Assembly: GCA_040904625.1 (NCBI GenBank)
Contig: JBBDTC010000105.1
Span: 1 to 42,044, forward strand
Source: Gammaproteobacteria bacterium
GTDB lineage: Bacteria; Pseudomonadota; Gammaproteobacteria; Ga0077536
DNA length: 42,044 nucleotides
Direction of reading: 5' to 3'
Part shown: positions 12,277 through 28,404 of the stretch, piece after piece
Position numbering within the stretch: the stretch's first letter is position 1
How the letters are laid out: every line of letters starts with the position of its first letter
Made by a program: the position numbers and the translations under genes
The notes under the pieces: model-generated
Database searches by the model: none
What the model was told of the DNA's origin: nothing
The model's input: only the letters and a program-made list of their open reading frames with translations

Positions 12277-12782
12277 GGTGCGGCCCCGGTCCCGGCTTCG
12301 TCGTCCGCGATCCAGTCGCGGGCGATCGCCAGGATCTCGGTCTCGTCGTCCTCGTCGATGCCAAGGAACGGCCGGGCCGGGATGGTGACCTGCTGCTTGG
12401 TGGCCCACTGGCCCCCCACCTTGAAGCGCAGGCCCTTCGATGTCTTGGCCGTGATGGTGCCGCCCAGCTGGTGGATGGCGGCGTAGAGCACGTTGGTGCC
12501 GACCTCGACGCCGGACTCGGTGGCGTTGTGGGTTAGCGACTGTACGAGGATCCCCGAAACACGCAGTGTCGGGCGGCCATCTCCAAGGAGTTCCCGAATG
12601 GCCGGCGGCCAGGGGCTGCCGTCCGGGCCCTGCTTGCGCTCGAAGCGACGCTGGGTCGACACGACCAGGCGCGCGCCGATGTTGTCGAACATGCCGCGCG
12701 GGTTTGAAGCCCGTTCGACATAGCCTTGAAGGGCCTCCAACGCCTCGTCCTGGCCGGTGACCTGGATGCGCGCCCCGTCCAT
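12273..12782 (-). CDS. Virion morphogenesis protein (Mu G / P2 S family)
   Basis: The signature VGTNVLYAAIHQLGG...IPARPFLG is typical of the family. Confidence 0.7.
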   Translation of the reverse strand: MDGARIQVTGQDEALEALQGYVERASNPRGMFDNIGARLVVSTQRRFERKQGPDGSPWPPAIRELLGDGRPTLRVSGILVQSLTHNATESGVEVGTNVLYAAIHQLGGTITAKTSKGLRFKVGGQWATKQQVTIPARPFLGIDEDDETEILAIARDWIADDEAGTGAAP

Positions 12783-13210
12783 CAGATGTAGCCCTTCAGG
12801 TTGTCGGGCGTGAGCGGCCGGTCGCGGTCGTTGGTGCGCACGCCCGACGAGCCCGAGGCCGTCGGCTCGGCGCCGTCCACGTCGAGGCGCACGGTGCCCG
12901 CCGCGATGTCGCGCAGCACCCGCAGCGCGTCGTCATAGTCCCGCCGGACCTTTTCGCTCGCGACGTTGCGGTGCAGCTTATAGAGCGCGATCGCCAGCGC
13001 CAGGTCGACGAGCAGCGCCGGGGTGGCGGCGAGCGGCAGCAGATAGCGGCCCTTCAGAAACCCATCGATCAGCGCGTCGGTGTCGGCCAGCGCGCGCTCG
13101 ACCACGTCGGCGTCAACGGCGCCGATCGGCGTCTCGCCCCGATCGGTGAGCTCGATCAGCATCGTCTCGCCGTAGCGGTCGGTCAGCTGGGCCTGGGTGG
13201 CGTAGGGCAT
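12782..13210 (-). CDS. Head-tail connector protein (Mu gp36-like, DUF1320)
   Basis: The pattern MPYATQAQLTDRYGETMLIELTDR...IDGFLKGRYLLPL is typical of the family. Confidence 0.7.
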   Translation of the reverse strand: MPYATQAQLTDRYGETMLIELTDRGETPIGAVDADVVERALADTDALIDGFLKGRYLLPLAATPALLVDLALAIALYKLHRNVASEKVRRDYDDALRVLRDIAAGTVRLDVDGAEPTASGSSGVRTNDRDRPLTPDNLKGYI

Positions 13211-13321
13211 CGCCGTCTCTCAAAGGTTCGGGGGCCGGCCTGAGCCCGGCTCAGGATGTGATGTATCCCCTCCGGCCCCCGGCTTCGGGGTTGCATGGCT
13301 CGGAGCGGGGCGGCTCGCCCC

Positions 13322-13927
13322 TCAGGTCGCTCCGCCGACCGTTCCGCCGCGCGCATAGGTCAGGAGCTCGACCGTCAGGTTCGGCTCCGCCAACAGCGCG
13401 GCGATCTGCTGACAAGTGAAACGGTCGATCGGATGCTCGACTGCCGCCTTGGAGTGCCGCATCCCGGCCCGCCGGAATCCGTCACGCTTGGCCGCGATGC
13501 GAACGTGTGTCGGGGAGCCGGACTGTGTCCCTACGTTCGGCGAGGCGACCGCCCCGTCCGACGTTCCGCCACCGGTGCTGGGGGCCTCGCGAGCCGTACC
13601 AGAGCTCCCCTCTGGGGTATTGGTGGAGGCGGGCTGCTCATCCGCCTCCTTCGGTTCAGCCGCGGCAGGCGGACCATCGACCGCCACAGCCTGAGGAGGC
13701 GTTTCCGAATTGACCTCGGGCGGCGCGCCGGGAACACTCTCTGCCGCGTAGAGCACGGCCTGCGGGCCCCAGTCGTCCATGCGGCTCGCCGGCAGCAGGT
13801 CGGCGACGTCGACCGGCACCTCCGTGCTCGCGAAGCCGGCGATCTGCGCGAAGCTCGTCACGCCCCTGGCGCGCAGCTCCTCGGCCGTCTTCGGCCCGAT
13901 ACCCTTGATGCGTGTCAGATCGTCCAT
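13322..13927 (-). CDS. HhH-domain protein with a FluMu/HI1506-like C-terminal domain
   Basis: N-terminal helix-hairpin-helix (IKGIGPKTAEEL), a low-complexity linker, and the C-terminal stretch VRIAAKRDGFRRAGMRH...TCQQIAALLAEPNLTVE. Confidence 0.6.
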   Translation of the reverse strand: MDDLTRIKGIGPKTAEELRARGVTSFAQIAGFASTEVPVDVADLLPASRMDDWGPQAVLYAAESVPGAPPEVNSETPPQAVAVDGPPAAAEPKEADEQPASTNTPEGSSGTAREAPSTGGGTSDGAVASPNVGTQSGSPTHVRIAAKRDGFRRAGMRHSKAAVEHPIDRFTCQQIAALLAEPNLTVELLTYARGGTVGGAT

Positions 13928-13945
13928 GTCGTCTCCCTCGAGTGC

Positions 13946-14020
13946 TGGTAGCGGGGGCCGGGTTCGAACCGGCGACCTGCAGGTTATGAGCCTGCCGAGC
14001 TACCGCTGCTCCACCCCGCG
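13946..14020 (-). tRNA. tRNA-Met (anticodon CAT), initiator-like
   Basis: The reverse complement is CGCGGGGTGGAGCAGCGGTAGCTCGGCAGGCTCATAACCTGCAGGTCGCCGGTTCGAACCCGGCCCCCGCTACCA. It folds as a 75-nt cloverleaf with a 7-bp acceptor stem, GAGC/GCTC D stem, GCAGG/CCTGC anticodon stem, loop CTCATAA, GCCGG/CCGGC T stem, and an encoded CCA. Confidence 0.85.
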
Positions 14021-14037
14021 GTTGATCCGGTCAGGCG

Positions 14038-14931
14038 TCAGGCCAGCCAGGGAACGACGAGCAGCTCCGCGGTGCCCTTCCACTCATTGGTCTCGCCGCC
14101 CGAGGCGTTCTCGGAGTTGAGGATCTTGCGTGCGGCGCTCTCCAGCGACGGCGGCACGACGAGCAGGTTGGGCATGAGGCCCAGCGGCCGGCCGTAATCG
14201 CCCTTCATGCCGCTGAGCGCGGCCCGCGCCGTGGCGTAATTGGCCGCGTTGAGCGTCTGCTTGGAGCCCCAGGCGAACTGCCAGAAGCCGAAGCCCACGT
14301 TGCCGCGGGCGTCCGCGCCGTAGACGAACTCCTTGTTGGTGAAGACGTTGTCGTCGGTCAGCTTGTCCTTGGCGACGAACTGGAAGTCGCGGCGCTTCTG
14401 CAGGATCACCGGCTTGAGCACGCGGGAAGCGTCGATGAGGAACCAGGGCGTGCCGGCCCCGCCGTCGGTGTTGGCGACCGAAGTCTCCGCGCCGTTTGCG
14501 TCGAGCACCGGGTGGTCGGTGTCGAAATAGGGCTGGCCGTCATAGGCGAGCTCGGTGAAGCCGTTTTTCAGGTGGGCGAAGGCGAGCGTGTCCCAGTGCG
14601 CGCCGGTCGACTGGCCCATTTCGGTGAACAGCGGCGTGTAGATGCCGAGGTTGTCGGTCTCGATGTCGTCGCGGTCGACGCCGATGGTCAGCTCCCACGG
14701 CTTCTCCTTGATGGCATAGTCGTGCTGCTGCAGGTTCTGCACGGCGCGCGGCCCGATCCATTCGCGGACGTTGGGGATCTTGCCGAGCCAGCCGTACTTC
14801 TGCTCCTTGGCGGACGACGGGACGATGGTGGCGATGCGGGTGTGCATCGTGGAGGCCATCGCCAGCCCGCCCTGGAAGCTGGTGGAGAAACCGACGCGCA
14901 GGGCGTCGAGGTTGGCGGCATTGACGAGCAT
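14038..14931 (-). CDS. Major head subunit (Mu gpT family)
   Basis: 297 aa, with ...KYGWLGKIPNVREWIGPR... and ...LLVVPWLA typical of Mu-like gpT. It lies after the protease/scaffold gene. Confidence 0.8.
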   Translation of the reverse strand: MLVNAANLDALRVGFSTSFQGGLAMASTMHTRIATIVPSSAKEQKYGWLGKIPNVREWIGPRAVQNLQQHDYAIKEKPWELTIGVDRDDIETDNLGIYTPLFTEMGQSTGAHWDTLAFAHLKNGFTELAYDGQPYFDTDHPVLDANGAETSVANTDGGAGTPWFLIDASRVLKPVILQKRRDFQFVAKDKLTDDNVFTNKEFVYGADARGNVGFGFWQFAWGSKQTLNAANYATARAALSGMKGDYGRPLGLMPNLLVVPPSLESAARKILNSENASGGETNEWKGTAELLVVPWLA

Positions 14932-14995
14932 GAGACTTGTTCCTTGGGTTCGGATGCCTGGTGGGGTGCCTGGGGGTTACGGGTGGCCTGGGCTC

Positions 14996-15412
14996 TCAGA
15001 CGATGCCCAGCTTGACCCAGACGCCGTTGTCGTCGACCTGGACGACCTTGCCGGCGACGGAGCGGGCACCGGTGTCGTCGGTCTTGGCCACCGTCTGGTC
15101 ATCGACGATGTAGCAATCGTCCCCGATCTCGGCGGCGGTGATCTCGTCGGCGCCGGCGGAGTTGGCGAACTGGAAGACGCCGCGCCGGACCCTCACCTTG
15201 ACGTCGCCGGCGGCACCGTCGGTGTTGTCCACCCGCTCCTCCGCCCGGCCCACGGTGACGAGGGTGGTGGCGGTCGCGCCAGGCGTGGCGAAGCCGGTGG
15301 CGCTCAAGGCCACGATCGCCCCGGCATAGATCAGAGCAGCGGCGGCCACGCCGTACGATTCTACGTCGCCGTCAGCGCGCGGCGTGTTGCGGTCAGCAGT
15401 CAGGGCGGGCAT
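14996..15412 (-). CDS. Head decoration-like protein (DUF2190-like)
   Basis: 138-aa beta-rich ORF between I/Z and T. Its start shares one nucleotide with the I stop (TGATG). Confidence 0.45.
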   Translation of the reverse strand: MPALTADRNTPRADGDVESYGVAAAALIYAGAIVALSATGFATPGATATTLVTVGRAEERVDNTDGAAGDVKVRVRRGVFQFANSAGADEITAAEIGDDCYIVDDQTVAKTDDTGARSVAGKVVQVDDNGVWVKLGIV

Positions 15413-16014
15413 CAGGCGGCCTCCTCGGCATCAGCGGCCTCGGCCGCCAGGGTTTTGGCGTAAGCTCCCGGGTCGATCCCGAGGAGCTTGGCGGCGGTGC
15501 GGTGCTCGGCGTGGAGCGAGACATTGCCGTCCTTGTCCTTCGCCGGCGGCGCGATCGTCGCGCCCGAGTGGCCGAGGATCGGGAACGCGCCGATCTCCTT
15601 CTCGACGCGCGCCGGGTCGGCCGCGTGCATGGCGATGTAGTGGTCACGCAACGGCTTGACGCCGACGCGCCCCCTGGCGATCTCGCCGTCGACGAAGGCG
15701 GTGGCCTTGTCCGTGGCGCCGGCGGTACGCAGCTCGTTGAGCTGGGTGGTAACGGTGGCGAGCTCCGCCTGCAGGGCGGTGACGGCTTCCCCGTGCCTGT
15801 CGGCGCCGGACCCATTCGCGGCGAGCGTCGTGACCGCATTCAGCACGGCATCCTGGTCGGCGTCTTCCTTGAGGCCGGCGGCCTTGGCGATCGGCGCCAG
15901 GGCCGACTGCAGCGACGTCGAACCCTTCAGCTCGCCGACGGAGTGCAGCACGGCGGCTTCGTCGGCATCGGCGGCAAGCCCGAGGGCCTCCCGCAGCTTC
16001 GTGAGCAAGTCCAT
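15412..16014 (-). CDS. Nested scaffold protein (gpZ-like), in-frame internal start
   Basis: Internal ATG at 16012-16014 (MDLLTKLREALGL...) preceded by a GGAGGA Shine-Dalgarno sequence at 7-nt spacing. The C-terminal half is helical and Ala-rich. Confidence 0.5.
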   Translation of the reverse strand: MDLLTKLREALGLAADADEAAVLHSVGELKGSTSLQSALAPIAKAAGLKEDADQDAVLNAVTTLAANGSGADRHGEAVTALQAELATVTTQLNELRTAGATDKATAFVDGEIARGRVGVKPLRDHYIAMHAADPARVEKEIGAFPILGHSGATIAPPAKDKDGNVSLHAEHRTAAKLLGIDPGAYAKTLAAEAADAEEAA

Positions 16015-16584
16015 CTTGGAATCCTCCAGTTCGGAGTTGAGCGCGGCCAGGCCGCGCAGGTTTGGGCGGTTGGTTAGCGCGGCCCGCAGGATGCCGGTCA
16101 CGCGATGATGGCTGGTGTGGGTGATTGCCGGAGAGATGTGCCGGTAGGCCCGGTCGGACATCAGCGCCTTGCCGGCGGCCGTCCATTCGACCCGCCCCCA
16201 GATGCCGTCGTCGCGCGCCTGCAGATCCACGATCCAGCCGCGCGCCGGCGACGGGCCGCCCTGGGGCGCGGCGAGATCGGTGGAATGGTTCTCGTCGATC
16301 GGCAACCGTCCGCCGGCGGCCTGGAGGCTCGATGCGGCGAGCTGGGCGGCGTCGGTGACGCGATAGGGACCGCGGCCGTCGACAGTGATGACCATGTCGG
16401 CCGGCAGCAGATGGACCCACTCGGGCGCATCACGATGGCCATCCGCGCCGGCGGCGACGTCGGGCAGCGCCACGGCCTGGCATAGCGCGGCCCGGTCGGT
16501 CGCCCGATCGGTCACCACGTCGGCCGCGGCGTGCAGTGCCACCTGGAGGGCGGGGAGGCCGGGGATTGCGTTGAAGCGCGTCAT
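15412..16584 (-). CDS. Head maturation protease / scaffold (Mu gpI family)
   Basis: WVHLLP...GRGPYRV...LPIDENHS...GWI..L..R.DGIWGRVEWT..G matches Mu I-type proteins. I chose the ATG at 16582-16584, because the longer GTG-started ORF (16635) would read through the upstream palindrome. Confidence 0.75.
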   Translation of the reverse strand: MTRFNAIPGLPALQVALHAAADVVTDRATDRAALCQAVALPDVAAGADGHRDAPEWVHLLPADMVITVDGRGPYRVTDAAQLAASSLQAAGGRLPIDENHSTDLAAPQGGPSPARGWIVDLQARDDGIWGRVEWTAAGKALMSDRAYRHISPAITHTSHHRVTGILRAALTNRPNLRGLAALNSELEDSKMDLLTKLREALGLAADADEAAVLHSVGELKGSTSLQSALAPIAKAAGLKEDADQDAVLNAVTTLAANGSGADRHGEAVTALQAELATVTTQLNELRTAGATDKATAFVDGEIARGRVGVKPLRDHYIAMHAADPARVEKEIGAFPILGHSGATIAPPAKDKDGNVSLHAEHRTAAKLLGIDPGAYAKTLAAEAADAEEAA

Positions 16585-16618
16585 GTGGGCAATATCGGGA
16601 TTGCAGGGGCTGCCCATA

Positions 16619-16638
16619 CCGGTGACGCGCGTCACCGG
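16619..16638. promoter_or_regulatory. 20-bp perfect palindrome CCGGTGACGCGCGTCACCGG upstream of gene I (putative late-activator site)
   Basis: Its centre is about 44 bp upstream of the I start codon. A near-identical palindrome (one mismatch) sits about 45 bp upstream of the endolysin start. Both are followed by the block ATCCCGATAWTSCCCAC. Confidence 0.5.
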
Positions 16639-16768
16639 TATTCACTCTCCAGGCAGGTGGTGATCTGGGCTGACTGGGTGAAGCCAGCACCCGCTTCAAC
16701 CACCCGCCAAGGAGATGCCCGATGCCGATCTTCGTCTGAATCTCAGATTGCCCGAATGACCTCTACCC

Positions 16769-16796
16769 GAGGCCCGGCCCCCAGCCGGGCCTCTTT
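16769..16796 (+). terminator. Strong GC hairpin terminator at the island / I-operon boundary
   Basis: GAGGCCCGGC-CCCCA-GCCGGGCCTC followed by TTTG on the plus strand, with an A-tract on the other side. It lies between the stop of the 392-aa gene and the PI region. Confidence 0.6.
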
Positions 16797-16829
16797 GCGT
16801 CCGGCACGTGGCCGAGGGAAGCGTTCGAC

Positions 16830-18008
16830 CTAAGGCTTTGCCAGCAGGCGCGCCACCAGCGCTGACAAGGAAGCGTCAGGTGCTCCCTCATCCTTCACAA
16901 TGCCGTCCGCCGACGGCCGAAACAGCGGAGCCAGGACGAGTGCCCGATCGCTCCTATCGAGTTCCTGCTCCTTGACCAGGGCAAGGAACGTCTTGACCAT
17001 CGCGATCCGCTCCAGCGCATCGATCCGCAGGTGGTGAGCGCTCAGGAAGAGGCGCACCAGGATGCGCCCGATCCAGAACAGGATCGTTGTGCCCAGGACA
17101 AAGAGTGCAGCGGAGACGATGAGCAGATTTGGACTTTGCGTCGGCTCCGTCGCGATTAGGAGGGGGATCACCTCAACTCCCGCTCCTATGCCGGCCAGCA
17201 GGGCGATGAATGCAAATGCGACCACAGACCAGGTCAGCCACCAACGCGAGGTGGCGTAGAGGGTGGCCTGTTGTTTCCAATAGTCGACAGCCGCCGCCAG
17301 TTCCATATGGGATGCATAGAGCTCGTTAGTGGAATTGATCCTGTCGATGCTTTCCTGGATCTTCGTCACCCAGGACTCCCGAAGCTCCTTTTCGAGCGCA
17401 ACCAGACGAGCCTGGCTTGCCTCGAGCTGCTCTTCCAATTCCTTCTTCTGGGCCGCCGCTTCCGATTGTGCATTGGCCAGGTGGTCCGCGGATATGTCGG
17501 CGATCCGTTTTAAGGAGCGCCAGATATCGTCCGGTGTGTTCTGGCCCACGCCCCCGTCCAGCATGGCAGCCTCGACCGCGCCACGGATGACCGCCAGGGG
17601 AGCTCGACCGCTATCAAAACGCAGCTTACCCATGCAGGCGGCGACTGCGCATGCAGCAACGTCGTGCAGATCCGCCTGCACGAGGCGGTCGGCAACTTGC
17701 CAGATTGGATCCGTCGACATCGGGTACCGCTTCCGCTCGTAGAGTTCTTTGAGCCGATCCGTCACCTGCTTTTCGTGTTCGGGAGTCTTCTGCCACTGGC
17801 GGATGTCCCCCATGGCCGCGTCCAAGAGGCCACGGAACTCCTCCTGAAAGTTGTCGGTGTAGTCGCGGACCGTTTGGACACGCCGGTGGCGTATCCATTC
17901 CCACGCGTCCATCTCCTCCTGCATCCACCGTTCTGCGGCGGCGGGTGATTCGAACACGAGTGGGGCCGCCCGACCGACATCGATGGAAAGCGCTTTGTTC
18001 TGCGACAT
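16830..18008 (-). CDS. Accessory membrane protein, 392 aa (soluble N-domain, coiled coil, two TM helices, amphipathic tail)
   Basis: ATG at 18006-18008 with a GGGGGA Shine-Dalgarno sequence. Coiled coil QKKELEEQLEASQARLVALEKELRE; TM helices WWLTWSVVAFAFIALLAGIGAGV and LLIVSAALFVLGTTILFWIGRILV. Its composition is lower in GC than the phage genes. Confidence 0.75.
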   Translation of the reverse strand: MSQNKALSIDVGRAAPLVFESPAAAERWMQEEMDAWEWIRHRRVQTVRDYTDNFQEEFRGLLDAAMGDIRQWQKTPEHEKQVTDRLKELYERKRYPMSTDPIWQVADRLVQADLHDVAACAVAACMGKLRFDSGRAPLAVIRGAVEAAMLDGGVGQNTPDDIWRSLKRIADISADHLANAQSEAAAQKKELEEQLEASQARLVALEKELRESWVTKIQESIDRINSTNELYASHMELAAAVDYWKQQATLYATSRWWLTWSVVAFAFIALLAGIGAGVEVIPLLIATEPTQSPNLLIVSAALFVLGTTILFWIGRILVRLFLSAHHLRIDALERIAMVKTFLALVKEQELDRSDRALVLAPLFRPSADGIVKDEGAPDASLSALVARLLAKP

Positions 18009-18204
18009 TGGTCCCCCGCGGTTGCTCCGTCCTGAATAGCCCATGCTGCGCGATCAAGCACCCCATCGAAGGGGTTTTAGGCAGCCGAGGCGGGGCCGGG
18101 CGTGCGAATCGGTTCATCGTCCGGCGGTGGCATTTCGGCGTTAATCATATCCTCAGGTAGTAGATAGACTATAGCATCGGGGAAAACGCCGTCGGGGGAC
18201 TGGC

Positions 18205-19392
18205 ATGAACCGGCTGTACTTCGGTGACAATCTCGATTGGCTGCCGCAAATAGAAATCGGCAGCGTCGATCTCGTGTACCTGGATCCGCCCTTCAATCGG
18301 CAGGCCAGCTTCAACATCCTCTACAGATCTCCGAGCGGCGATCAAACTGCCCAATACAGGGCCTTCGAGGACACCTGGCGGTGGGGCCCGGCGAGCGACT
18401 ATGCCTTTGCGCATGTGAAGCAAAGCGGATCACCAGCATTCGACACCCTGGTTTCGCTGAACAACTACATGCAGAAGAGCGATCTCATGGCCTACCTGAC
18501 CATGATGACCGCGCGGCTGCTCGAGCTGCGCCGGGTGCTGAAGCCGTCCGGCAGCTTGTTCCTCCATTGTGACGCCAGCGCCAGCCACTATCTGAAGATC
18601 ATTCTGGACCAGATCTTCGGGGCCGGCACCTTCCGCAACGAGATCATCTGGCGGCGGTCGATGGGCAAATCGCTCATGACCCGCCGCCTCCCGACGAACC
18701 ACGACGTCATCCTGTTCTATTCAGGTGACGAGGCCGTCTGGAACGGGGATCACGCGTTCGCAGCCTATGACGTCGACGACCTTCCCACGAAGGCCGCAGC
18801 AAAGTACGCCCAGAAGGATGCGGACGGGCGACGATATCAGCTCACGAGCCTGATCAATCCCAATCAGAACAGGCCCAATCTGACGTATGAATTCCTTGGC
18901 GTCACAAAGGTCTGGCGCTGGACGCAGGAGCGAATGCAGGCGGCGCACGAAGCAGGGCTGATCGTTCAAACTGCGCCGGGTCGCGTGCCGCGGTTCAAGC
19001 GATATCTCGATGAACAGCGGGGCCTGCCTCTTGACGACGTCTGGACAGACATCCCGCCGATCAATTCGCAGGCGCAGGAGCGGCTCGGCTATCCGACGCA
19101 GAAGCCATTGGCGCTTCTCGGGCGCATCATCAAGCTGGCCACGAATCCGGGTGACGTAGTGCTGGATCCGTTCTGTGGGTGCGGTACAGCAGTCGAGGCG
19201 GCACAGAAGCTCGGGCGGAGATGGATTGGAATAGACGTGACCGTGCTCGCGATAGATCTTGTCGAGAAGCGGCTACGCCGACTGAAACTCGAGCGCGATG
19301 CTGATTACACGGTCGAGGGCATCCCACTGGATGTGGACGGTGCCCAAGCCTGTTCGAGTCTGATCCGCACGCGTTTCAGCTTTGGGCTCTAA
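18205..19392 (+). CDS. Beta-class N4/N6 DNA methyltransferase (catalytic domain intact, 3' end out of frame)
   Basis: Motif IV DLVYLDPPFN precedes motif I VVLDPFCGCGT. GGGGGA Shine-Dalgarno sequence before the ATG at 18205. The last approximately 14 codons (CSSLIRTRFSFGL) look like out-of-frame read-through. Confidence 0.8.
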   Translation: MNRLYFGDNLDWLPQIEIGSVDLVYLDPPFNRQASFNILYRSPSGDQTAQYRAFEDTWRWGPASDYAFAHVKQSGSPAFDTLVSLNNYMQKSDLMAYLTMMTARLLELRRVLKPSGSLFLHCDASASHYLKIILDQIFGAGTFRNEIIWRRSMGKSLMTRRLPTNHDVILFYSGDEAVWNGDHAFAAYDVDDLPTKAAAKYAQKDADGRRYQLTSLINPNQNRPNLTYEFLGVTKVWRWTQERMQAAHEAGLIVQTAPGRVPRFKRYLDEQRGLPLDDVWTDIPPINSQAQERLGYPTQKPLALLGRIIKLATNPGDVVLDPFCGCGTAVEAAQKLGRRWIGIDVTVLAIDLVEKRLRRLKLERDADYTVEGIPLDVDGAQACSSLIRTRFSFGL

Positions 19393-19958
19393 CTCTGGTG
19401 GACGGTCAGCCGCGCGAAGGGGGAAAGCGCGGTGCGGACAGAGGTATTGATGGCCTGCTGTACTACATGGAGGACGCCAAAACGGCCAGGCGAGCGATCA
19501 TCTCCGTGAAAGGAGGCAGGAATATCCACGCCGAGCACGTCCGCGATCTGATCGGCACCATGCATACGCAGGGCGATCAGCTCGGGCTGATGATCACGTT
19601 GCACAACCCCACCGATGCAATGGACAGGGCGGCAAAGGAAGCGGGCACGCTGGAGGCTTTCAACAAGCCACGCCCAGCGGTTCAGATCTTTACAGTGGCG
19701 CAGCTTCTTGCTGGCCTCAGGCCGAACCTGCCGCCCGTGCTTGACATCATCGCAACTGCGGCAGCGGCCAGACGGGCCTCTGCAAAGAAGGCTCCGAAAG
19801 CCCCGACGCCCGCGGACATCCGGAAGTCTCCTCCACTCAAACTGCCAATCACCGGCGGCCGATCTCGCGAACTTCAAGACGTCTTGGACATAGACGATCC
19901 TCTGCTGGTTCAGCAGCAGGATGACGCGGCAGCAAAGCGGGGCCGCCGGCGCGCATAG
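19305..19958 (+). pseudogene. Mrr-type PD-(D/E)xK nuclease domain displaced into another frame from the methyltransferase
   Basis: The frame is open from 19305 and reads ...LFESDPHAFQLWALTLVDGQPREGGKRGADRGIDGLLYY...AIISVKGG (D...GIDG...xVK motif). It has no convincing Shine-Dalgarno sequence of its own; the listed ORF starts at the GTG at 19398. Confidence 0.6.
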
Positions 19959-19993
19959 GCTGTCTGACCGATCTTGATGCCTCGCCGCCATGA

Positions 19994-20105
19994 TAATCCC
20001 GCCGTCAAAGGGGTTTTGAAGGGGCTGGGGGGCCAAAGGCGGCTCCGGTGCATCCACCGGGCCTCCAAGCCGCCCGGAAGCCGCTGTGGGCGTTCTGTGC
20101 GGCTC
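19994..20105 (+). repeat. Copy X of an intergenic repeat of about 110 bp (34-bp perfect core)
   Basis: TAATCCCGCCGTCAAAGGGGTTTTGAAGGGGCTG (19994-20027) is identical to 24409-24442. About 75 further bp align imperfectly. Confidence 0.8.
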
Positions 20106-20216
20106 GCCCGGAGGCGGTACTTCGCCTCGCATCCCATCACAATCGGCCGCTTTGATGGACCGCCTGCCACACAGGTCGTATGGTGGTCCTGCGACCATCG
20201 CGGAAAGGAGTCGACA

Positions 20217-20438
20217 ATGCCGTTCGCTCCGTACCAATCGAGCTTCAACTCCGATTCTCTCAGGATTCTTCAAGAGGCATTCGACCAGGCCTGGGCCGAG
20301 GTGGCGGCCTCGCCCAGCGTCACACTCGACGAGCAGGCCGCGCGCAACATGATCGCCAATCGGATCGTGCACGCCTGGCGCGACCAGGGCGAACGCGACC
20401 CGGAGCGGCTGAAGCAGCACGCTGTCGAGGGGCTGTAA
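20217..20438 (+). CDS. Small 73-aa helical protein of the accessory island
   Basis: AAAGGAG Shine-Dalgarno sequence 6 nt before the ATG at 20217. MPFAPYQSSFNSDSLRILQEAFDQAWAEV... resembles small orphan proteins common in Rhizobiales. The longer ORF-track version (19974) lacks a ribosome-binding site. Confidence 0.6.
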   Translation: MPFAPYQSSFNSDSLRILQEAFDQAWAEVAASPSVTLDEQAARNMIANRIVHAWRDQGERDPERLKQHAVEGL

Positions 20439-20462
20439 ACCTGGGCGTCCGTCTGGCGCGGC

Positions 20463-21179
20463 CTAATCGCCCCGCCGGCGGGCGAGCTCCTCGCGCAGAT
20501 GCTCGTCCAGCGGCGCGCCGGGCCGATAGGCGAAGCCCGGGTCGATCCCCTGCGGCACGCGCACGGTGGTCGGACCTTCGGCGGTATTGATGCGCCGCTC
20601 GACCAGCGGCGACTCCGGGGTCTCCGATACCGTCAGTCCGAAGCGCTCCACGTCGCGGGCGTTCAGCGACTGGGCCAGGCAGCGGCAGTTCCAGCCGTTG
20701 GGCGGAAAGTGCGTCTGCCACCACGGGTCGTCGGCCGGCAGCACTGTATCGTGCCAGGCAGCGTGCTGCGGCCTGGTGCGCGCATCCATCACCGCGACAT
20801 AGCGGATGTAGGGGCGCTGCTCCTTCACCCGCTGGATCTGCTCCCAGCGCCCCGCCGCATAGGCCATGCGCAGGTTCGTCTGGAAGATCACCCGGGACCG
20901 CCAGTTGCGCCCTCCCTTGTAGCTCCAGCCGTACCGCGCCACGATCTCATCGAAGTCCTCGCGGAACTGGGCCAGCGTGCGGCCCTCCTCGAGCGCCGCC
21001 AGGACGGCGGCATGGAAGTCCGCGATAAGGTCCTGGCTTTGCGCCCCGGCGACCACGAAGGCGGCCGAATGCATCTCCTGCCAGATGTCGGTCCAGGTCC
21101 GCGTCGGGATGTCGAGCTTGCGGCGCAGGAACTCGATCGCCTCGGTCGGGTTGGCCGCGAAGGGCTGGGCCTCAGGCAT
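20463..21179 (-). CDS. Mu F-like minor head / morphogenesis protein (gp30 family)
   Basis: The signature RTRPQHAAWHDTVLPADDPWW...PPNGWNCRC is typical of the Phage_Mu_F family. Confidence 0.8.
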   Translation of the reverse strand: MPEAQPFAANPTEAIEFLRRKLDIPTRTWTDIWQEMHSAAFVVAGAQSQDLIADFHAAVLAALEEGRTLAQFREDFDEIVARYGWSYKGGRNWRSRVIFQTNLRMAYAAGRWEQIQRVKEQRPYIRYVAVMDARTRPQHAAWHDTVLPADDPWWQTHFPPNGWNCRCLAQSLNARDVERFGLTVSETPESPLVERRINTAEGPTTVRVPQGIDPGFAYRPGAPLDEHLREELARRRGD

Positions 21180-22731
21180 CGGCGCTCGCGATCTCGTCGC
21201 GCCCCGCTAGATCGGCGAACAGCATGGCGAGCCCCATCGCCGTCGCCAGCTGATCGGAGGGGAGCCCAAGGTCGAGGATCGCCTCGCGTACCTCCTCGAG
21301 GCTCTGAGCGACGTCGATCAGCCCGCGAATCGTGTCGATCATCTCATCCATAGCCGGCTGCGCGTGCGCTTCGGCCGCCGCGGCCAGGCCGTCCAGCCCG
21401 TCGCGCGGCGGCTTCACCTCTTCCGCCTGCAGCGCCTGCTTGCCCTCCTGCGGGGCGGGTCCGGGGAGTGGGGCAACCGGCGCCGCCCGCGCCTCCAGGA
21501 CCTCGGCATCGGGATCCGGATCCGGCAGCCCGAACTTGTCGCGGATCACGCTCGCCTCGACGCGCAAGCCGAGCGGCACCAGCTTCGCCAGCGACTCGGC
21601 GAGCAGCTTCAGGTCCTCTTCCTCGGGCCGGCCGATGCGCAGCCGCGGATAGACCTTCTGCGGCCCGAACTCGAGATCGATCCACGGCCGCACCAGGTCA
21701 CGGTTGAGCACGGCCGCAAGCGCTTTCGCGTCGGCCCGCTCGATGTCCTCCTGCACTTGGCGGTGCTCCTGGCCGACGGCATGGCCGCCGGCGATCGCGT
21801 CCGTCGTGGCGGTCTGGCCCAGCACCGCCTTGGAGACCTGCCGGTCGAGCCAGTCGGCACGGCGCTCGTAGAGATCCATGGAAGAGCCCACCGACTTCGA
21901 CTCGATAAACTCGATCAGCATCGACTCGGGGATGATCGCCGCGCAGTCGCCGGCGATGTTGGCCACCGCCCTGAACAGGGTGTCCTTGTCGGCCTCGGTG
22001 GCGCCGGCGCCGTATTTCCCGACGCGGATCGGCTGGCCATAGGTCTGGGTGAAGATCGCCCAGTCCCTGAGGGTGAAGGCCTTGAACATCCACGACCAGG
22101 CGGCCAGCCGCGCGATGCCCGATCGCACCGGCAATCCCGACTTGGACCGAATGATCGCCTGGATGAACTTGAAGGCGGGCAGCGGCTGGTCGCCCTCGTC
22201 GGTGCGCAACAGCGGCGTGGTGCCGTCATGCCGGTCGAAGCGGAACCAGCGCGGGTCGCGCCACTCGAGGCGGGCGGGGCGCCACTGGCCGGCGCTCGTG
22301 TCCCAGATGATCTCGGTGAGGCTCGTCCCCTTGCCGATGGCGTCGAGGATATCGAATATCTCGTCCTGCAGCTGGTCGCGCAGCAGCCAGTCGCGCACCA
22401 TGTCAGCGTGGCGCACGTGCTCGGGCGCGTCCGACGCCGCGTCCACGGTGATGTCGATCTGCGCCACCGAGCGCCGGCGGGTGCCGAGCACGCCGGCATA
22501 ATGCAGGTCGCGCTCCTCGATCTGCTCGGCGAGCTCAAAATAGCGCAGCGGCTCGCCCTGGTCGGCATCGCGCAGGATGTGCGCTAGGCGCAAGGGGTTG
22601 AGGCCGTCGCCGGGATAGCCGGAGATGACCGAGCGCACGCCGGTGATCGTCGGTCCGGCGACTTCCTCGGTGAGTACCTCGCGCCGGATCGGCTGGCCAT
22701 CGGGGCCGAGCAGCTGGGGTTTGGTCGCCAT
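21172..22731 (-). CDS. Portal protein (Mu gp29 / DUF935 family)
   Basis: The start MATKPQLLGPDG shares one nucleotide with the TerL stop (TGATG at 22729-22733). 519 aa in the conserved position. Confidence 0.8.
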   Translation of the reverse strand: MATKPQLLGPDGQPIRREVLTEEVAGPTITGVRSVISGYPGDGLNPLRLAHILRDADQGEPLRYFELAEQIEERDLHYAGVLGTRRRSVAQIDITVDAASDAPEHVRHADMVRDWLLRDQLQDEIFDILDAIGKGTSLTEIIWDTSAGQWRPARLEWRDPRWFRFDRHDGTTPLLRTDEGDQPLPAFKFIQAIIRSKSGLPVRSGIARLAAWSWMFKAFTLRDWAIFTQTYGQPIRVGKYGAGATEADKDTLFRAVANIAGDCAAIIPESMLIEFIESKSVGSSMDLYERRADWLDRQVSKAVLGQTATTDAIAGGHAVGQEHRQVQEDIERADAKALAAVLNRDLVRPWIDLEFGPQKVYPRLRIGRPEEEDLKLLAESLAKLVPLGLRVEASVIRDKFGLPDPDPDAEVLEARAAPVAPLPGPAPQEGKQALQAEEVKPPRDGLDGLAAAAEAHAQPAMDEMIDTIRGLIDVAQSLEEVREAILDLGLPSDQLATAMGLAMLFADLAGRDEIASADA

Positions 22732-24389
22732 CAGATGCTCCCTCTCAATCCTACCCCATAGGGCTGGCGCCACCAGGCGCGGCTCTCGGAGCCGTCCTCG
22801 TCCGGCCCGCCGGCGGCGCCGCCGCCGGGCTGGACGGTCGCCGAGCGATAGCCGTATTCGTGCCATTGCATGCGCGATGCGAAGTGGGCGAGCGCCAGCG
22901 CGATGGCATAGTCGCCGTGGCGCTTCTTGCCCTTCTCGCCCTCGCGCGTCGCCGGCACCATCGGGATGCCCCTGATGGTCTTGACCAGGCGCAGGTCGGA
23001 CAGGTGCTCGGCGTCGGGCGCAATCGCGATCGCGTCATCCTCGAAGGCCACCTTCAGCGGCGGCATGTGCAGGCGATACCACTCCTGGGAGAACTTGATC
23101 GCCCAGACGAGGCCGCCGCTCGTCTCGTCCTCGCGCAGCCCGAACTTGCGGCCCATGTCTTCGGCCACCGTCCAGCCCATGCCCGTGGCGTCGAAGGCCG
23201 CGCCGACGAGGCGCGAGCGCACCCGCTCCAGCACCTTGGCCACGATCTGTTTCTGCTCGTCGCCGGGCACGCCGCGCAGCTCGAAGGTGAGGGCGCTGCG
23301 CCGCCGCAGCGGCTTCTCGATCGACAAGAGTTTGCCGACCGACAGGTCCGCCACGCGGGCGAAGTCGAAGCCGAAGGCATAGAGGGGGGCGAGGTCGAGC
23401 CCGTCGAGCGCCGCCTCCAGCTCCTCCATGAAGGGCGCGAGCAGCGACTGGCGCTCCAGTTCTGGCCGCTGCAGGAAGTCCGGCGGTAGCTCGAGCCTGA
23501 GGATCGGCGCGTCGGCCGTCATGCGCGCCTCGATCAGCGGGCCCGACAGCCAGGCGCCCGAGCCCAGCGCCGGCACGCAGAACAGCTCCTCGTCGGCCGC
23601 CTCGCCGTAGAAGTCGATGATGTCCTGGCGCCAGGCGGCCTCGCTTTCCGCCGTCCACTCCGCCCCCGTCACCAGGCAGATGCGCTGGTAGAGCCCCTCC
23701 ATCAGCGCCTGGTCGAAGTCGATGCGCATGTGGTCGTACTTCGACCGGCCGCCGAGGATGTCCTGGACCAGCTCGTTGAAGTGGTTTTCGGAGCCGTTGT
23801 GGGTCGAACACACGACCACCTGGCCGCCCCACATGAGGAAGGCGAGAGCGGCCTTCAAAAGCTCCTTGAGCGAGTCGACGAAGGCGGCCTCGTCGATGAT
23901 CACCAGGCCCTGCTTGCCGCGCAGGGTGCGCGGCGCCGAAGACAATGCCAGCACCTCGAAGCCCGACGCGAAGCGGATCCGGAACGCCTGGATGGCGCGG
24001 TCGCCGGTCTCGTCGCTGTCGTCGAACAGGAACTCCTCGGCCGCCAGGGCCGCCATGTTGTAGGCCCGGGCCCACATGGCGCAGGCGTCGACGAACTCCC
24101 GCGTCATCTCCTGCGAGTAGGAGATGTACATGGCGTCCATGCCGCCGGCCGCCTTGGACCGGGCGGCGCGCAGCACCGCATGCGCCCCGAGCCCCCAGGT
24201 CAGCCCGATGCGGCGCGACTTCTCCACCACCAGCACGCGGGTGCCGGCGGAGTCGAGCAGCCCCACGGCGCGCTGCTGATAGGGCAGCAGCAGGTCCGGC
24301 AGCCCGACCTGCTCGATGACCTGGTCGAGGCCCGCGATCGACTCCCACCGCAGCGCCTCCCAGTCGGCTTTCGACAGCGGGGCGTTCAT
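22731..24389 (-). CDS. Terminase large subunit (Mu gp28-like)
   Basis: Walker-like VVEKSRRIGLTW and LVIIDEAAF, with a C-terminal nuclease region. The ATG at 24387-24389 is preferred over the GTG at 24396-24398. Confidence 0.8.
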   Translation of the reverse strand: MNAPLSKADWEALRWESIAGLDQVIEQVGLPDLLLPYQQRAVGLLDSAGTRVLVVEKSRRIGLTWGLGAHAVLRAARSKAAGGMDAMYISYSQEMTREFVDACAMWARAYNMAALAAEEFLFDDSDETGDRAIQAFRIRFASGFEVLALSSAPRTLRGKQGLVIIDEAAFVDSLKELLKAALAFLMWGGQVVVCSTHNGSENHFNELVQDILGGRSKYDHMRIDFDQALMEGLYQRICLVTGAEWTAESEAAWRQDIIDFYGEAADEELFCVPALGSGAWLSGPLIEARMTADAPILRLELPPDFLQRPELERQSLLAPFMEELEAALDGLDLAPLYAFGFDFARVADLSVGKLLSIEKPLRRRSALTFELRGVPGDEQKQIVAKVLERVRSRLVGAAFDATGMGWTVAEDMGRKFGLREDETSGGLVWAIKFSQEWYRLHMPPLKVAFEDDAIAIAPDAEHLSDLRLVKTIRGIPMVPATREGEKGKKRHGDYAIALALAHFASRMQWHEYGYRSATVQPGGGAAGGPDEDGSESRAWWRQPYGVGLRGSI

Positions 24390-24408
24390 GCGGCCCACCC
24401 GGGCACGT

Positions 24409-24520
24409 TAATCCCGCCGTCAAAGGGGTTTTGAAGGGGCTGCAGGCCGCATGGCGGCATCCGGCGCAGCACGGGGCCATAACGCCGGCCCGGAGGCGCC
24501 GTGGGCGCCCTGTGCCGGTG
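24409..24520 (+). repeat. Copy Y of the intergenic repeat of about 110 bp
   Basis: It has the same 34-bp core as 19994-20027. It fills the only large gap (24390-24555) in the lysis-to-portal gene string and contains the hairpins GCCGC-ATG-GCGGC and GGCGCC-GTG-GGCGCC. Confidence 0.8.
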
Positions 24521-27367: not shown

Positions 27368-28404
27368 GACGTCTTGCCGCGCCGCTCATCGTCCACCCGG
27401 GCCTGACCGGCCTTCCATGCCTGCCACGCGATATAGGCGCCGATCGCCACCGCCACGGCGCAGACGGCCAGGCCGTATTCGGCGACGAACCAGCGCACCG
27501 GCCGCAGCCAGTCGCCGATCTGCCCGACCGTGTCGGCCACTTGGCCCGCCATGCCGACCGCGCCGCCCACCGCCACGCCGCCGCCGGCGGCGACGTTCTT
27601 CAGGCTGGCATCGGCGATGCGGCTTTCCTTGGCGAGACCGGCGAGATTGGCCTCCGCGCGCTGCACCGAAATCGGGCGCCGCTTGCCCCGGTCGATCGCC
27701 TCCAGCGTCACCGGCCCGGCGATACCGTCGGTCTCGATGTCGTTGTCGGCCTGGAACGCCAGCACGGCGGCCCGAGTGCGTGCCCCGAAGCTGCCGTCGA
27801 TGTAGCCGACCTGATAGCCGAGCTCATCCAGCCGCTGCTGCAGGATCTCCACCGCGACGCCCCTGCTGCCCATCCTGAGCAGCGCTCCCTCCCCCCTTGT
27901 GGGGGAGGGCTGGGGTGGGGGGGCAACCGCCACCGCGTCATCGGGCTCGGCCCGCCGATCCGCCGCCGGCGCCCGCCGGATGCCCAGCAGCCGCACGTGC
28001 GGATAAGTCGTGACAGTCACCGCATCGCGTTGGTTGCCGCCCAGAACCTCCACCCTGTCGCCGGCCCACCCGAGGAAGAACGCGACATGCCCCTCCGCCG
28101 GGTTCTTGCCGCGCGAGAACACGGCCACATCGCCCGGTCGGGCATCGCTCTCCACGACCGCCTTGCCCCACTTCATGTAGGAGCGAGCCGCCAGCGAGCG
28201 GGTCGATCGCACGCCGCCGCGCTCCAAGCAGGCGCCGACGAAGGCGGCGCACCACGGCACCTCGTCGTGCTCGACCCACTTGTGGCCGAGCTGGCCGTAC
28301 ATCGCCATGATGACGGGGTTGTCCTTCGCGCCGGCGATCTCCTTCGTCCCGAGGAGCTCGCGCGCGATGGTGAGGTGCTTGGGGTCTGCGTCGCTGTTCG
28401 TCAT
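27364..28404 (-). CDS. Endolysin: CHAP/NlpC-P60-like domain, PG_binding_1 domain and C-terminal TM anchor
   Basis: VPWCAAFVGACL (Cys) and EGHVAFFLGW (His); LQQRLDELGYQVGYIDGSFGARTRAAVLAFQ (peptidoglycan-binding repeat); C-terminal hydrophobic segment YGLAVCAVAVAIGAYIAWQAW. Confidence 0.8.
   Translation of the reverse strand: MTNSDADPKHLTIARELLGTKEIAGAKDNPVIMAMYGQLGHKWVEHDEVPWCAAFVGACLERGGVRSTRSLAARSYMKWGKAVVESDARPGDVAVFSRGKNPAEGHVAFFLGWAGDRVEVLGGNQRDAVTVTTYPHVRLLGIRRAPAADRRAEPDDAVAVAPPPQPSPTRGEGALLRMGSRGVAVEILQQRLDELGYQVGYIDGSFGARTRAAVLAFQADNDIETDGIAGPVTLEAIDRGKRRPISVQRAEANLAGLAKESRIADASLKNVAAGGGVAVGGAVGMAGQVADTVGQIGDWLRPVRWFVAEYGLAVCAVAVAIGAYIAWQAWKAGQARVDDERRGKTS
27881..27923 (+). repeat. 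GC-rich hairpin element, copy in the endolysin linker
   Basis: AGCGCTCCCTCCCCCCTTGTGGGGGAGGGCTGGGGTGGGGGGG has a 9-bp stem, CCCTCCCCC/GGGGGAGGG. It is read in frame as PPPQPSPTRGEGAL. Confidence 0.8.

Follow-up and report, generated by a model that had tools for sequence, protein, structure and literature searches.

An initiator-type tRNA gene in a Mu-like phage

The window analyzed here, a stretch of 42,044 nucleotides (nt) from contig JBBDTC010000105.1 (assembly GCA_040904625.1), carries the genes of a Mu-like transposable phage and, among them, a single tRNA gene that follows the gene for the major head protein (gpT family) on the minus strand. We consider it probable that this gene encodes a functional initiator tRNA (tRNA-fMet type) with which the phage would supplement the host pool late in infection, judging from the identity elements that it retains, its divergence from cellular initiator genes, and the presence of similar tRNAs in the same interval of related phages.

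ARAGORN scoring, which an initial annotation of this DNA had proposed as a check, reports exactly one tRNA in the window, a tRNA-Met with anticodon CAT. Positions 13946-14020 match the Rfam tRNA model with 60.9 bits (gathering score 29; E = 6.6e-11) and full model coverage, and the minimum-free-energy fold is a perfect cloverleaf in which position 1 is unpaired. The sequence is CGCGGGGTGGAGCAGCGGTAGCTCGGCAGGCTCATAACCTGCAGGTCGCCGGTTCGAACCCGGCCCCCGCTACCA. Its acceptor stem (CGCGGGG/CCCCGCU) has a C1xU72 mismatch, followed by G2:C71, C3:G70, G4:C69 and G5:C68; the D stem (GAGC/GCUC) includes A11:U24 and encloses a 7-nt loop, AGCGGUA; and the anticodon stem (GCAGG/CCUGC), with A29:U41, G30:C40 and G31:C39, carries the 7-nt loop CUCAUAA, in which CAU is the anticodon. 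The T arm is GCCGG-UUCGAAC-CCGGC, and the 3' end, GCU-A-CCA, has A73 as the discriminator and a templated CCA; CCA templating is said, in the title of one paper (PMC5143459), to be high in initiator genes.

The initial annotation, made from the sequence alone, had described a 75-nt tRNA resembling tRNA-fMet without giving its strand, and ARAGORN, Rfam and position-by-position parsing agree with that description and place the gene on the minus strand. Parsing also confirms the details that it listed, namely a shared 5' sequence (the first 16 nt are identical to those of Escherichia coli metZ), the G2:C71, C3:G70 and A11:U24 pairs, the CUCAUAA loop, the C1xU72 mismatch, A29:U41 followed by two G:C pairs, and a D loop that lacks 2 nt compared with E. 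coli.

Assignment as an initiator

The ARAGORN label is tRNA-Met(CAT), and CAU tRNAs are ambiguous by anticodon alone, such that the gene could in principle encode an elongator tRNA-Met, or a tRNA-Ile2 in which CAU is modified to lysidine and reads AUA; both readings are extremely improbable. In E. coli the lack of a Watson-Crick pair at 1:72 is a determinant of formylation and also blocks EF-Tu binding and peptidyl-tRNA hydrolase, and the TilS-type acceptor stem of tRNA-Ile2 carries C4:G69 and C5:G68. The window tRNA has the features of an initiator throughout (CAU in a 7-nt loop, an unpaired 1:72, G2:C71, C3:G70, G4:C69, A11:U24 and A73-CCA). An elongator tRNA-Met would have a Watson-Crick 1:72 pair, a pyrimidine-purine pair at 11:24 (Y11:R24) and no run of G30:C40 and G31:C39, and the window tRNA differs in each of these respects. 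It also departs from tRNA-Ile2 in having G4:C69 and G5:C68, and there is scarcely any AUA for such a tRNA to read, since this codon accounts for just 14 of the 8,930 phage codons.

Comparison with 5,426 E. coli genomes gives matches to the window tRNA at a median of four places per genome, and the one place examined is a three-gene tRNA-Met cluster between mltA and amiC, i.e. metZWV. This median equals the number of initiator genes in E. coli, which has four, metZWV and metY (PMC5389676). The elongator-Met and tRNA-Ile2 readings were rejected on the initiator-type acceptor stem, the E. coli matches and the low use of AUA.

Identity elements and the probable host class

Among cultured phages, Rhodobacter phage RC1 and Rhodovulum phage RS1 come closest, with 69% nucleotide identity over the head module. 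The exact gpT protein sequence has no entry on record, and the best gpT matches on plasmids or chromids are those of Rhizobium, Azospirillum and Pannonibacter. From these nearest phages and prophages the best inference is that the host is alphaproteobacterial. Housekeeping initiators of this class, retrieved downstream of 5S rRNA in Azospirillum, Tistrella, Sphingobium, Cereibacter, Gemmobacter, Ensifer and Bosea (five orders), are near-identical to one another, and all seven have the anticodon stem UCAGG/CCUGA, which gives A29:U41, G30:C40 and G31:C39. An A:U first pair in this run is reported for all alpha-proteobacteria (PMC5389676). The window tRNA thus departs from the strict E. coli rule of three G:C pairs (29:41, 30:40 and 31:39; the 3GC rule), with A:U at 29:41, and has instead the au/GC/GC variant of the alpha-proteobacterial type; its occurrence in all seven alphaproteobacterial initiators makes A29:U41 the norm for the probable host class.

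The alphaproteobacterial housekeeping initiator shares with the window tRNA the first 16 nt, A11:U24, the CUCAUAA loop, the au/GC/GC stem, A73 and CCA, but it sits in the rRNA operon, whereas the window tRNA is in a phage late operon. The E. coli tRNA-fMet shares pairs 2:71 to 7:66, the D stem, the anticodon loop, the variable loop and a T stem of the form GxCGG/CCGxC, and it differs in having G29:C41 (and hence three G:C pairs), C1xA72 and a 9-nt D loop.

A scan of 185,579 species genomes for initiators with a short D arm provides a wider context, and the figures given here are those among the matches listed (120 loci, 125 tRNAs). Position 1:72 is C·A in 77 of these short-D-loop tRNAs and C·U in 19, the latter mostly in Chloroflexota lineages, with others in Ignavibacteriales and a Clostridium. 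A29:U41 is present in 15 of the 125, and none combines it with C·U. Housekeeping initiators of Desulfosporosinus and other Peptococcaceae, and of Chloroflexota, Patescibacteria and Terriglobia, have the 7-nt D loop. The initial annotation had taken A29:U41, C1xU72 and the short D loop as altered identity elements, and this view does not hold, as each occurs in cellular initiators. All three are best read as natural initiator variants of which only the combination is unusual, and for annotation purposes they should not be taken as signs of altered function.

Divergence from cellular initiator genes

The exact 72-nt tRNA has no match in IMG/VR and none in the 185,579 species genomes, an exact 39-nt core consisting of the D arm and the anticodon arm has none in metagenome contigs, and the exact pattern of anticodon loop and T arm has none in IMG/VR. 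Again among the matches listed, the best cellular ones are 88-92% identical, and the best short-D-loop tRNA of the genome scan is identical at 69 of 75 positions and lies in a Patescibacteria assembly. Of 77 positions, 68 agree with the alphaproteobacterial consensus and 67 with E. coli metZ.

A 2-nt deletion in the D loop, two stem pairs, two T-loop bases (G57 and C60) and U72 make up the nine differences from the alphaproteobacterial form, and both stem differences are compensatory (27:43, U:A to G:C; 51:63, A:U to C:G). The tRNA therefore appears to have diverged while its cloverleaf stayed perfect, and the lack of an identical cellular gene indicates that it is not a recent capture. The status of a variant, rather than an exact host copy, that the initial annotation had assigned to it thus stands, and a plain host copy was rejected on the lack of exact genome matches and the 9/77 differences from the alphaproteobacterial consensus.

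Genomic context

The genes around the tRNA are all on the minus strand and all match phage Mu families, and MuA, a MuB-like protein, GemA, Gp27, portal, Mu F, gpI, gpT and Gp36 occur in Mu order. The features are as follows.

35993-38182, minus strand: MuA-type DDE transposase with a Mu DNA-binding domain (family match)
Minus strand: AAA MuB-like protein, GemA, Gp27, large terminase and Mu F (family matches)
21172-22866, minus strand: Mu portal protein (Portal_Mu; family match)
15412-16635, minus strand: gpI protease/scaffold (Pfam Mu-like_Pro, E = 6.9e-51; PHROG 328 and PHROG 1731 cover this gene and the next)
14996-15412, minus strand: virion structural protein (PHROG 328/1731, for this gene and gpI)
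14038-14931, minus strand: major head protein, Mu gpT family (Pfam Mu-like_gpT, E = 8.3e-125; PHROG 371, E = 5e-121)
14021-14037, minus strand: 17-nt spacer from the gpT stop codon (TGA, 14038-14040) to tRNA position 1, the presumed RNase P leader (sequence)
13946-14020, minus strand: initiator-type tRNA-Met(CAU) gene, 75 nt, with encoded A73-CCA (ARAGORN, Rfam, fold)
13928-13945, minus strand: 18-nt spacer after CCA, with the Shine-Dalgarno sequence GAGGGAG of the next gene (sequence ...ACCA GCACTCGAGGGAGACGAC ATG)
13322-13927, minus strand: gene for a protein of 201 amino acids (aa), N-terminal helix-hairpin-helix and C-terminal FluMu_N, HI1506-like (Pfam FluMu_N, E = 3e-10; HHH_5, E = 6e-6)
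12782-13210, minus strand: Mu Gp36-type head-tail adaptor, the downstream boundary of the variable interval (Pfam Phage_Mu_Gp36, E = 1.3e-36; PHROG 195)
Minus strand: tail tube, tape measure and tail-tip protein (family matches)

This gene content upholds the initial description of the tRNA as phage-borne and in the late operon of a Mu-like phage, and its position directly after the major capsid gene is likewise correct, with just 17 nt separating it from the gpT stop. No promoter-like site was found in the region 12500-17000, and neither a sigma-70-like promoter nor a terminator adjoins the tRNA, the sole terminator-like match in that region lying within the downstream gene and being at chance level. 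The absence of a promoter and terminator of its own, together with the tight packing between late genes, suggests that the tRNA is co-transcribed with the late head genes. No credible remnant of a degenerate tRNA is seen in the 111 nt that separate the HI1506-like gene from gp36, where Rfam gives only sub-threshold noise and the z-score of the fold is -0.5.

In the source run, a Logan contig of independent origin (13,066 nt, depth 13.1) extends from the downstream gene through the tRNA into the 3' end of gpT with zero differences from the window, showing that the gpT-tRNA junction is not an assembly chimera, and in a second sample of the same study a diverged 323-nt contig also joins the tRNA to gpT. 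Metagenome contigs that match the tRNA are dominated by community initiator tRNAs, whose depths range from several hundred to about 1,300. Only one run, a sediment metagenome, contains essentially the whole sequence (99% of sampled words), and four other soil or sediment metagenomes contain 5-11% of sampled words.

tRNAs in the same interval of related phages

The interval between gpT and gp36 was compared in 110 de-duplicated loci that have a gpT relative (59-86% amino acid identity) and at least 1 kb downstream of it. Seven contain an initiator-like tRNA-Met(CAU) in this interval and three a tRNA-like gene, or about 6-9% of relatives. The initial statement that Mu-like phages rarely carry tRNAs is thus only roughly true, as 7-10 of 110 relatives have one in this interval. 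All ten lie 300-860 nt past gpT, as against 17 nt in the window, and none has the window's gene layout; in at least four phages (L009, L037, L253 and L283) the tRNA follows a homologue of the window's 201-aa HI1506-like gene, as identified by phmmer, whereas the window tRNA precedes it.

Nine further viral contigs have initiator-like tRNAs that a search with the window D arm recovers. The order protease, major head protein, tRNA, Gp36-type adaptor is seen in L093, which is among the nine, and in a prophage of Bosea sp. TWI1241 (L133; NZ_JBDJKW010000011.1, tRNA at 2761-2835), in both cases with a capsid family (PHROG 1005) unrelated to gpT. The Bosea prophage is of the myovirus type, with a PHROG 976 protease, the Gp36-type adaptor and a tail sheath. 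Its tRNA combines a short D loop with U1-G72 and three G:C pairs, whereas the initiator of Bosea itself is a 77-nt au/GC/GC tRNA of the normal alphaproteobacterial form, and the prophage copy is thus clearly accessory. No homologues of window proteins were found in the loci listed from the short-D-loop scan, the Bosea prophage being recognized through PHROG families only.

The D arm GAGC-AGCGGUA-GCUC is common to the window, L093 and the Bosea prophage, and an elongator-like C11:G24 D stem is present in six of the eight gpT-linked copies (all but L253 and L283). The sharing of this D arm and the different position of the window tRNA suggest that it was acquired independently into the same interval, and the interval tRNAs have seemingly been acquired more than once.

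Alignment of the eleven distinct interval tRNAs (those of the window, L009, L037, L044, L049, L072, L243, L253, L283, L093 and L133) to the cloverleaf shows that 96.1% of cells are paired, compared to 80.2% in shuffles and 43-50% in slid controls. Two of the carriers, L049 and L072, are isolate-derived IMG/VR prophages. Nine pairs are changed on both sides, and the covariation score is 0.447 versus 0.131, a value reached in 0 of 500 shuffles. CAU, the pairs from G2:C71 to G6:C67, and G30:C40 are invariant in all eleven, the 7-nt anticodon loop is kept, and A73 is present in all but one, which has C73. Position 1:72 takes seven forms (C·U, C·A, G·A, A·A, A·G, U·G and U:A), with seven mismatches, three U:A and one U-G, and is never G:C or C:G. 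This pattern is the one expected under selection for formylation and against EF-Tu binding, and it argues that these are real charged initiators and not mere structures.

Two other kinds of element occur in the same region. Four IMG/VR contigs (L057, 4508-4593; L077, 1626-1711; L078, 1877-1962; and L305) have an 86-nt tRNA-like gene in the interval after gpT, with an initiator-like acceptor (C1xA72), D arm, T arm and CCA, and Rfam tRNA scores of 45-49 bits. A 17-nt segment forming an extra hairpin replaces the 7-nt anticodon loop, there is no CAU, and two variants differ solely inside the hairpin. L013 (4631-4721) and L220 (4131-4221) carry just upstream of gp36 a 91-nt element that ARAGORN reports as 'tRNA-Gly(ccc)'; it has an acceptor stem, a T arm and ACCA with an aberrant middle, and falls short of Rfam E = 0.01.

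Possible roles of the tRNA

The most probable scenario is that the tRNA is transcribed within the late head-morphogenesis mRNA, from which host RNase P and the 3'-end processing enzymes would excise it. Host methionyl-tRNA synthetase (MetRS) would then charge it by virtue of the CAU anticodon and A73, the host formyltransferase would act through the unpaired C1xU72, G2:C71, C3:G70 and A11:U24, and initiation factors IF2 and IF3 would place it in the P site through G30:C40, G31:C39 and the alphaproteobacterial-type A29:U41; these elements are all present, and the activities are predicted from them. The net effect would be extra initiator tRNA during the bulk synthesis of capsid and tail proteins, and the phage copy could keep initiation capacity up if the host pool falls. 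The alphaproteobacterial initiator gene stands last in rRNA operons, which ties initiator supply to rRNA transcription, and with a copy of its own the phage would make initiation capacity independent of that transcription.

Several observations weigh against this scenario. About 90% of the relatives have no tRNA at all in the interval, so any benefit would have to be conditional; no RNA-seq runs containing the window sequence were found; and the fit to the host translation apparatus is argued from the nearest phages and prophages. The tRNA-like genes that lack an anticodon further hint at a selected function that could be at least partly independent of decoding.

The initial annotation had also raised a role as decoy or replacement against a defence nuclease. 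In such a role, a variant initiator would resist or soak up a host toxin (a VapC-type PIN nuclease or an acceptor-end toxin) and sustain initiation during abortive infection. Both VapC cleavage of initiator tRNA and phage tRNAs that counter tRNA-targeting defences are published (PMC10264068), and the window tRNA does depart from the initiator of the probable host class, at the D loop (2 nt shorter), G57, C60, U72, 27:43 and 51:63. The seven combinations at 1:72 among eleven tRNAs whose acceptor stem is otherwise frozen could moreover reflect diversifying pressure at the acceptor end. However, similar variation at 1:72, including C1xU72, is found in cellular initiators, and the CUCAUAA loop and pairs 28:42 to 31:39, i.e. 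four of the five pairs of the anticodon stem, are identical to those of host-class initiators, without the anticodon-loop mutation signature described in PMC10264068; according to the same study, phages in general refrain from encoding tRNA-fMet where it is a VapC target. No tRNA toxin, formyltransferase, deformylase, tRNA-repair or tRNA-modifying enzyme was found among the about 45 window proteins scanned, and we regard the decoy proposal, which has no specific support in the sequence, as unlikely. A different role for the fold would be in RNA processing, the tRNA acting as an RNase P signal that cuts the late mRNA after the capsid gene and so sets different stabilities or translation rates for gpT and for the downstream adaptor and tail genes, with decoding secondary or absent. 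Its location, 17 nt past the stop of the structural gene in highest demand and 18 nt short of the following start codon, is suited to such punctuation; at least three phage groups, some of them with an unrelated capsid family (L093 and L133), have a tRNA or tRNA-like gene between capsid and gp36; and four contigs keep the acceptor, T arm and CCA with a 17-nt hairpin in place of the anticodon loop. Nonetheless, the eleven true tRNAs keep CAU, the 7-nt loop, A73 (C73 in one) and the formylation determinants despite turnover in the stems, which is more than a mere RNase P signal needs. The window and its relatives moreover do not have the tRNA at the same place in the interval, and most relatives lack the element. 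Punctuation as the principal role is decidedly unlikely.

It is also conceivable that the tRNA is a neutral passenger, gained by illegitimate recombination into a permissive variable interval and as yet undecayed. The content of the gpT-gp36 interval does vary among relatives, some 90% of which have no tRNA there, and RC1 and RS1, the closest cultured phages, have just 18 bp after the capsid gene. A passenger is nevertheless very unlikely, as the tRNA has nine differences from the nearest plausible donor class and yet retains a perfect cloverleaf, all identity elements and compensatory stem changes. There is no identical cellular gene from which it could recently have been captured, the diverged relative in another sample also has the tRNA beside gpT, and tRNAs have been acquired repeatedly in the same interval. 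A broader but speculative proposal, to which we give a low probability, is that the interval from head gene to Gp36 adaptor in Mu-like phages is a conserved niche for RNAs derived from initiator tRNAs that are selected for something beyond tRNA supply; it is prompted by the hypervariable and never strongly paired 1:72 and by the hairpin that replaces the anticodon loop in some lineages. If correct, such RNAs could act as decoys or replacements against acceptor-end toxins, or as RNase P punctuation that sets capsid-to-adaptor expression ratios.

Relationship to other phage tRNAs

Met/fMet tRNAs are already common in phages, and matches to the window tRNA occur in 258 phage records. Temperate Sinorhizobium meliloti phiLM21-like prophages are described as having a single tRNA-Met or tRNA-fMet gene (PMC12429752), and these, CBW1004C-Prop1 and Mesorhizobium phage vB_MseS-P1 are likewise temperate, 35-55 kb in length, and carry one CAU tRNA of the Met/fMet type. 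They are either integrase-type phages (phiLM21-like) or have lambda-like regulators (NinG, Q, CII), whereas the window contains a transposable Mu-like siphovirus, and at the two loci examined (CBW1004C-Prop1 and vB_MseS-P1) the tRNA is in regulatory or early regions rather than inside the head-gene operon. We note that both of these initiator-like tRNA-Met genes (L298, 3001-3076, in CBW1004C-Prop1; L300, 3001-3074, in vB_MseS-P1) are unannotated in the published genomes, and that the vB_MseS-P1 tRNA lies under a coding sequence annotated as 'transcriptional repressor'. Like the phage tRNAs of PMC10264068, the window tRNA is a phage copy of a species attacked by VapC, but it is without the anticodon-loop change or an experimental link to a nuclease.

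No paper on the tRNAs of Mu-like phages came up in literature searches, and two minor observations made here are new, the recurrent location between capsid and adaptor and the pattern at 1:72. Discussion of phage tRNAs usually centres on large lytic phages and on codon supply or escape from anticodon nucleases, and here the carrier is a small transposable temperate phage. If the window tRNA is functional, then temperate phages of Alphaproteobacteria would sometimes secure initiation capacity, rather than codon supply, for late expression, in keeping with the linkage of the initiator gene to rRNA operons in that host class.

Other features of the window

Between the gpI protease and Mu F genes there is a lower-GC island (~16700-20450; 0.60 versus about 0.69), which is probably prophage-borne defence cargo inside the head module. 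It contains three genes.

16830-18044, minus strand: AbiZ-like DUF6161 protein
18205-19392, plus strand: type II N6/N4 DNA methyltransferase
19389-20420, minus strand: unassigned open reading frame of 343 aa

A 64-nt direct repeat (81% identical, core TAATCCCGCCGTCAAAGGGGTTTTGAAGGGGCTG) has one copy at 19980-20043 in this island and the other at 24395-24458, around the predicted terminase start, and it may represent a duplicated late promoter or activator site. A gene for a Dam-like D12-class N6-adenine methyltransferase (790-1623) is at the tail-fibre end, the position of the com/mom region in Mu.

Among the repeated sequences, we also note a GC-rich palindrome of ~41 nt that is present in three copies (27881-27921, 36209-36249 and 37888-37928), with the minus strand sequence CCCC.CCCC.GCCCTCCCCC-ACAA-GGGGGGAGGG-AGCGCT. 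All copies are in frame in inter-domain linkers and code for Pro/Gly-rich stretches, one in the endolysin between CHAP and PG_binding and two in the Mu transposase at aa 85-99 and 645-658. They are reminiscent of in-frame insertions such as the Rickettsia palindromic elements (RPEs).

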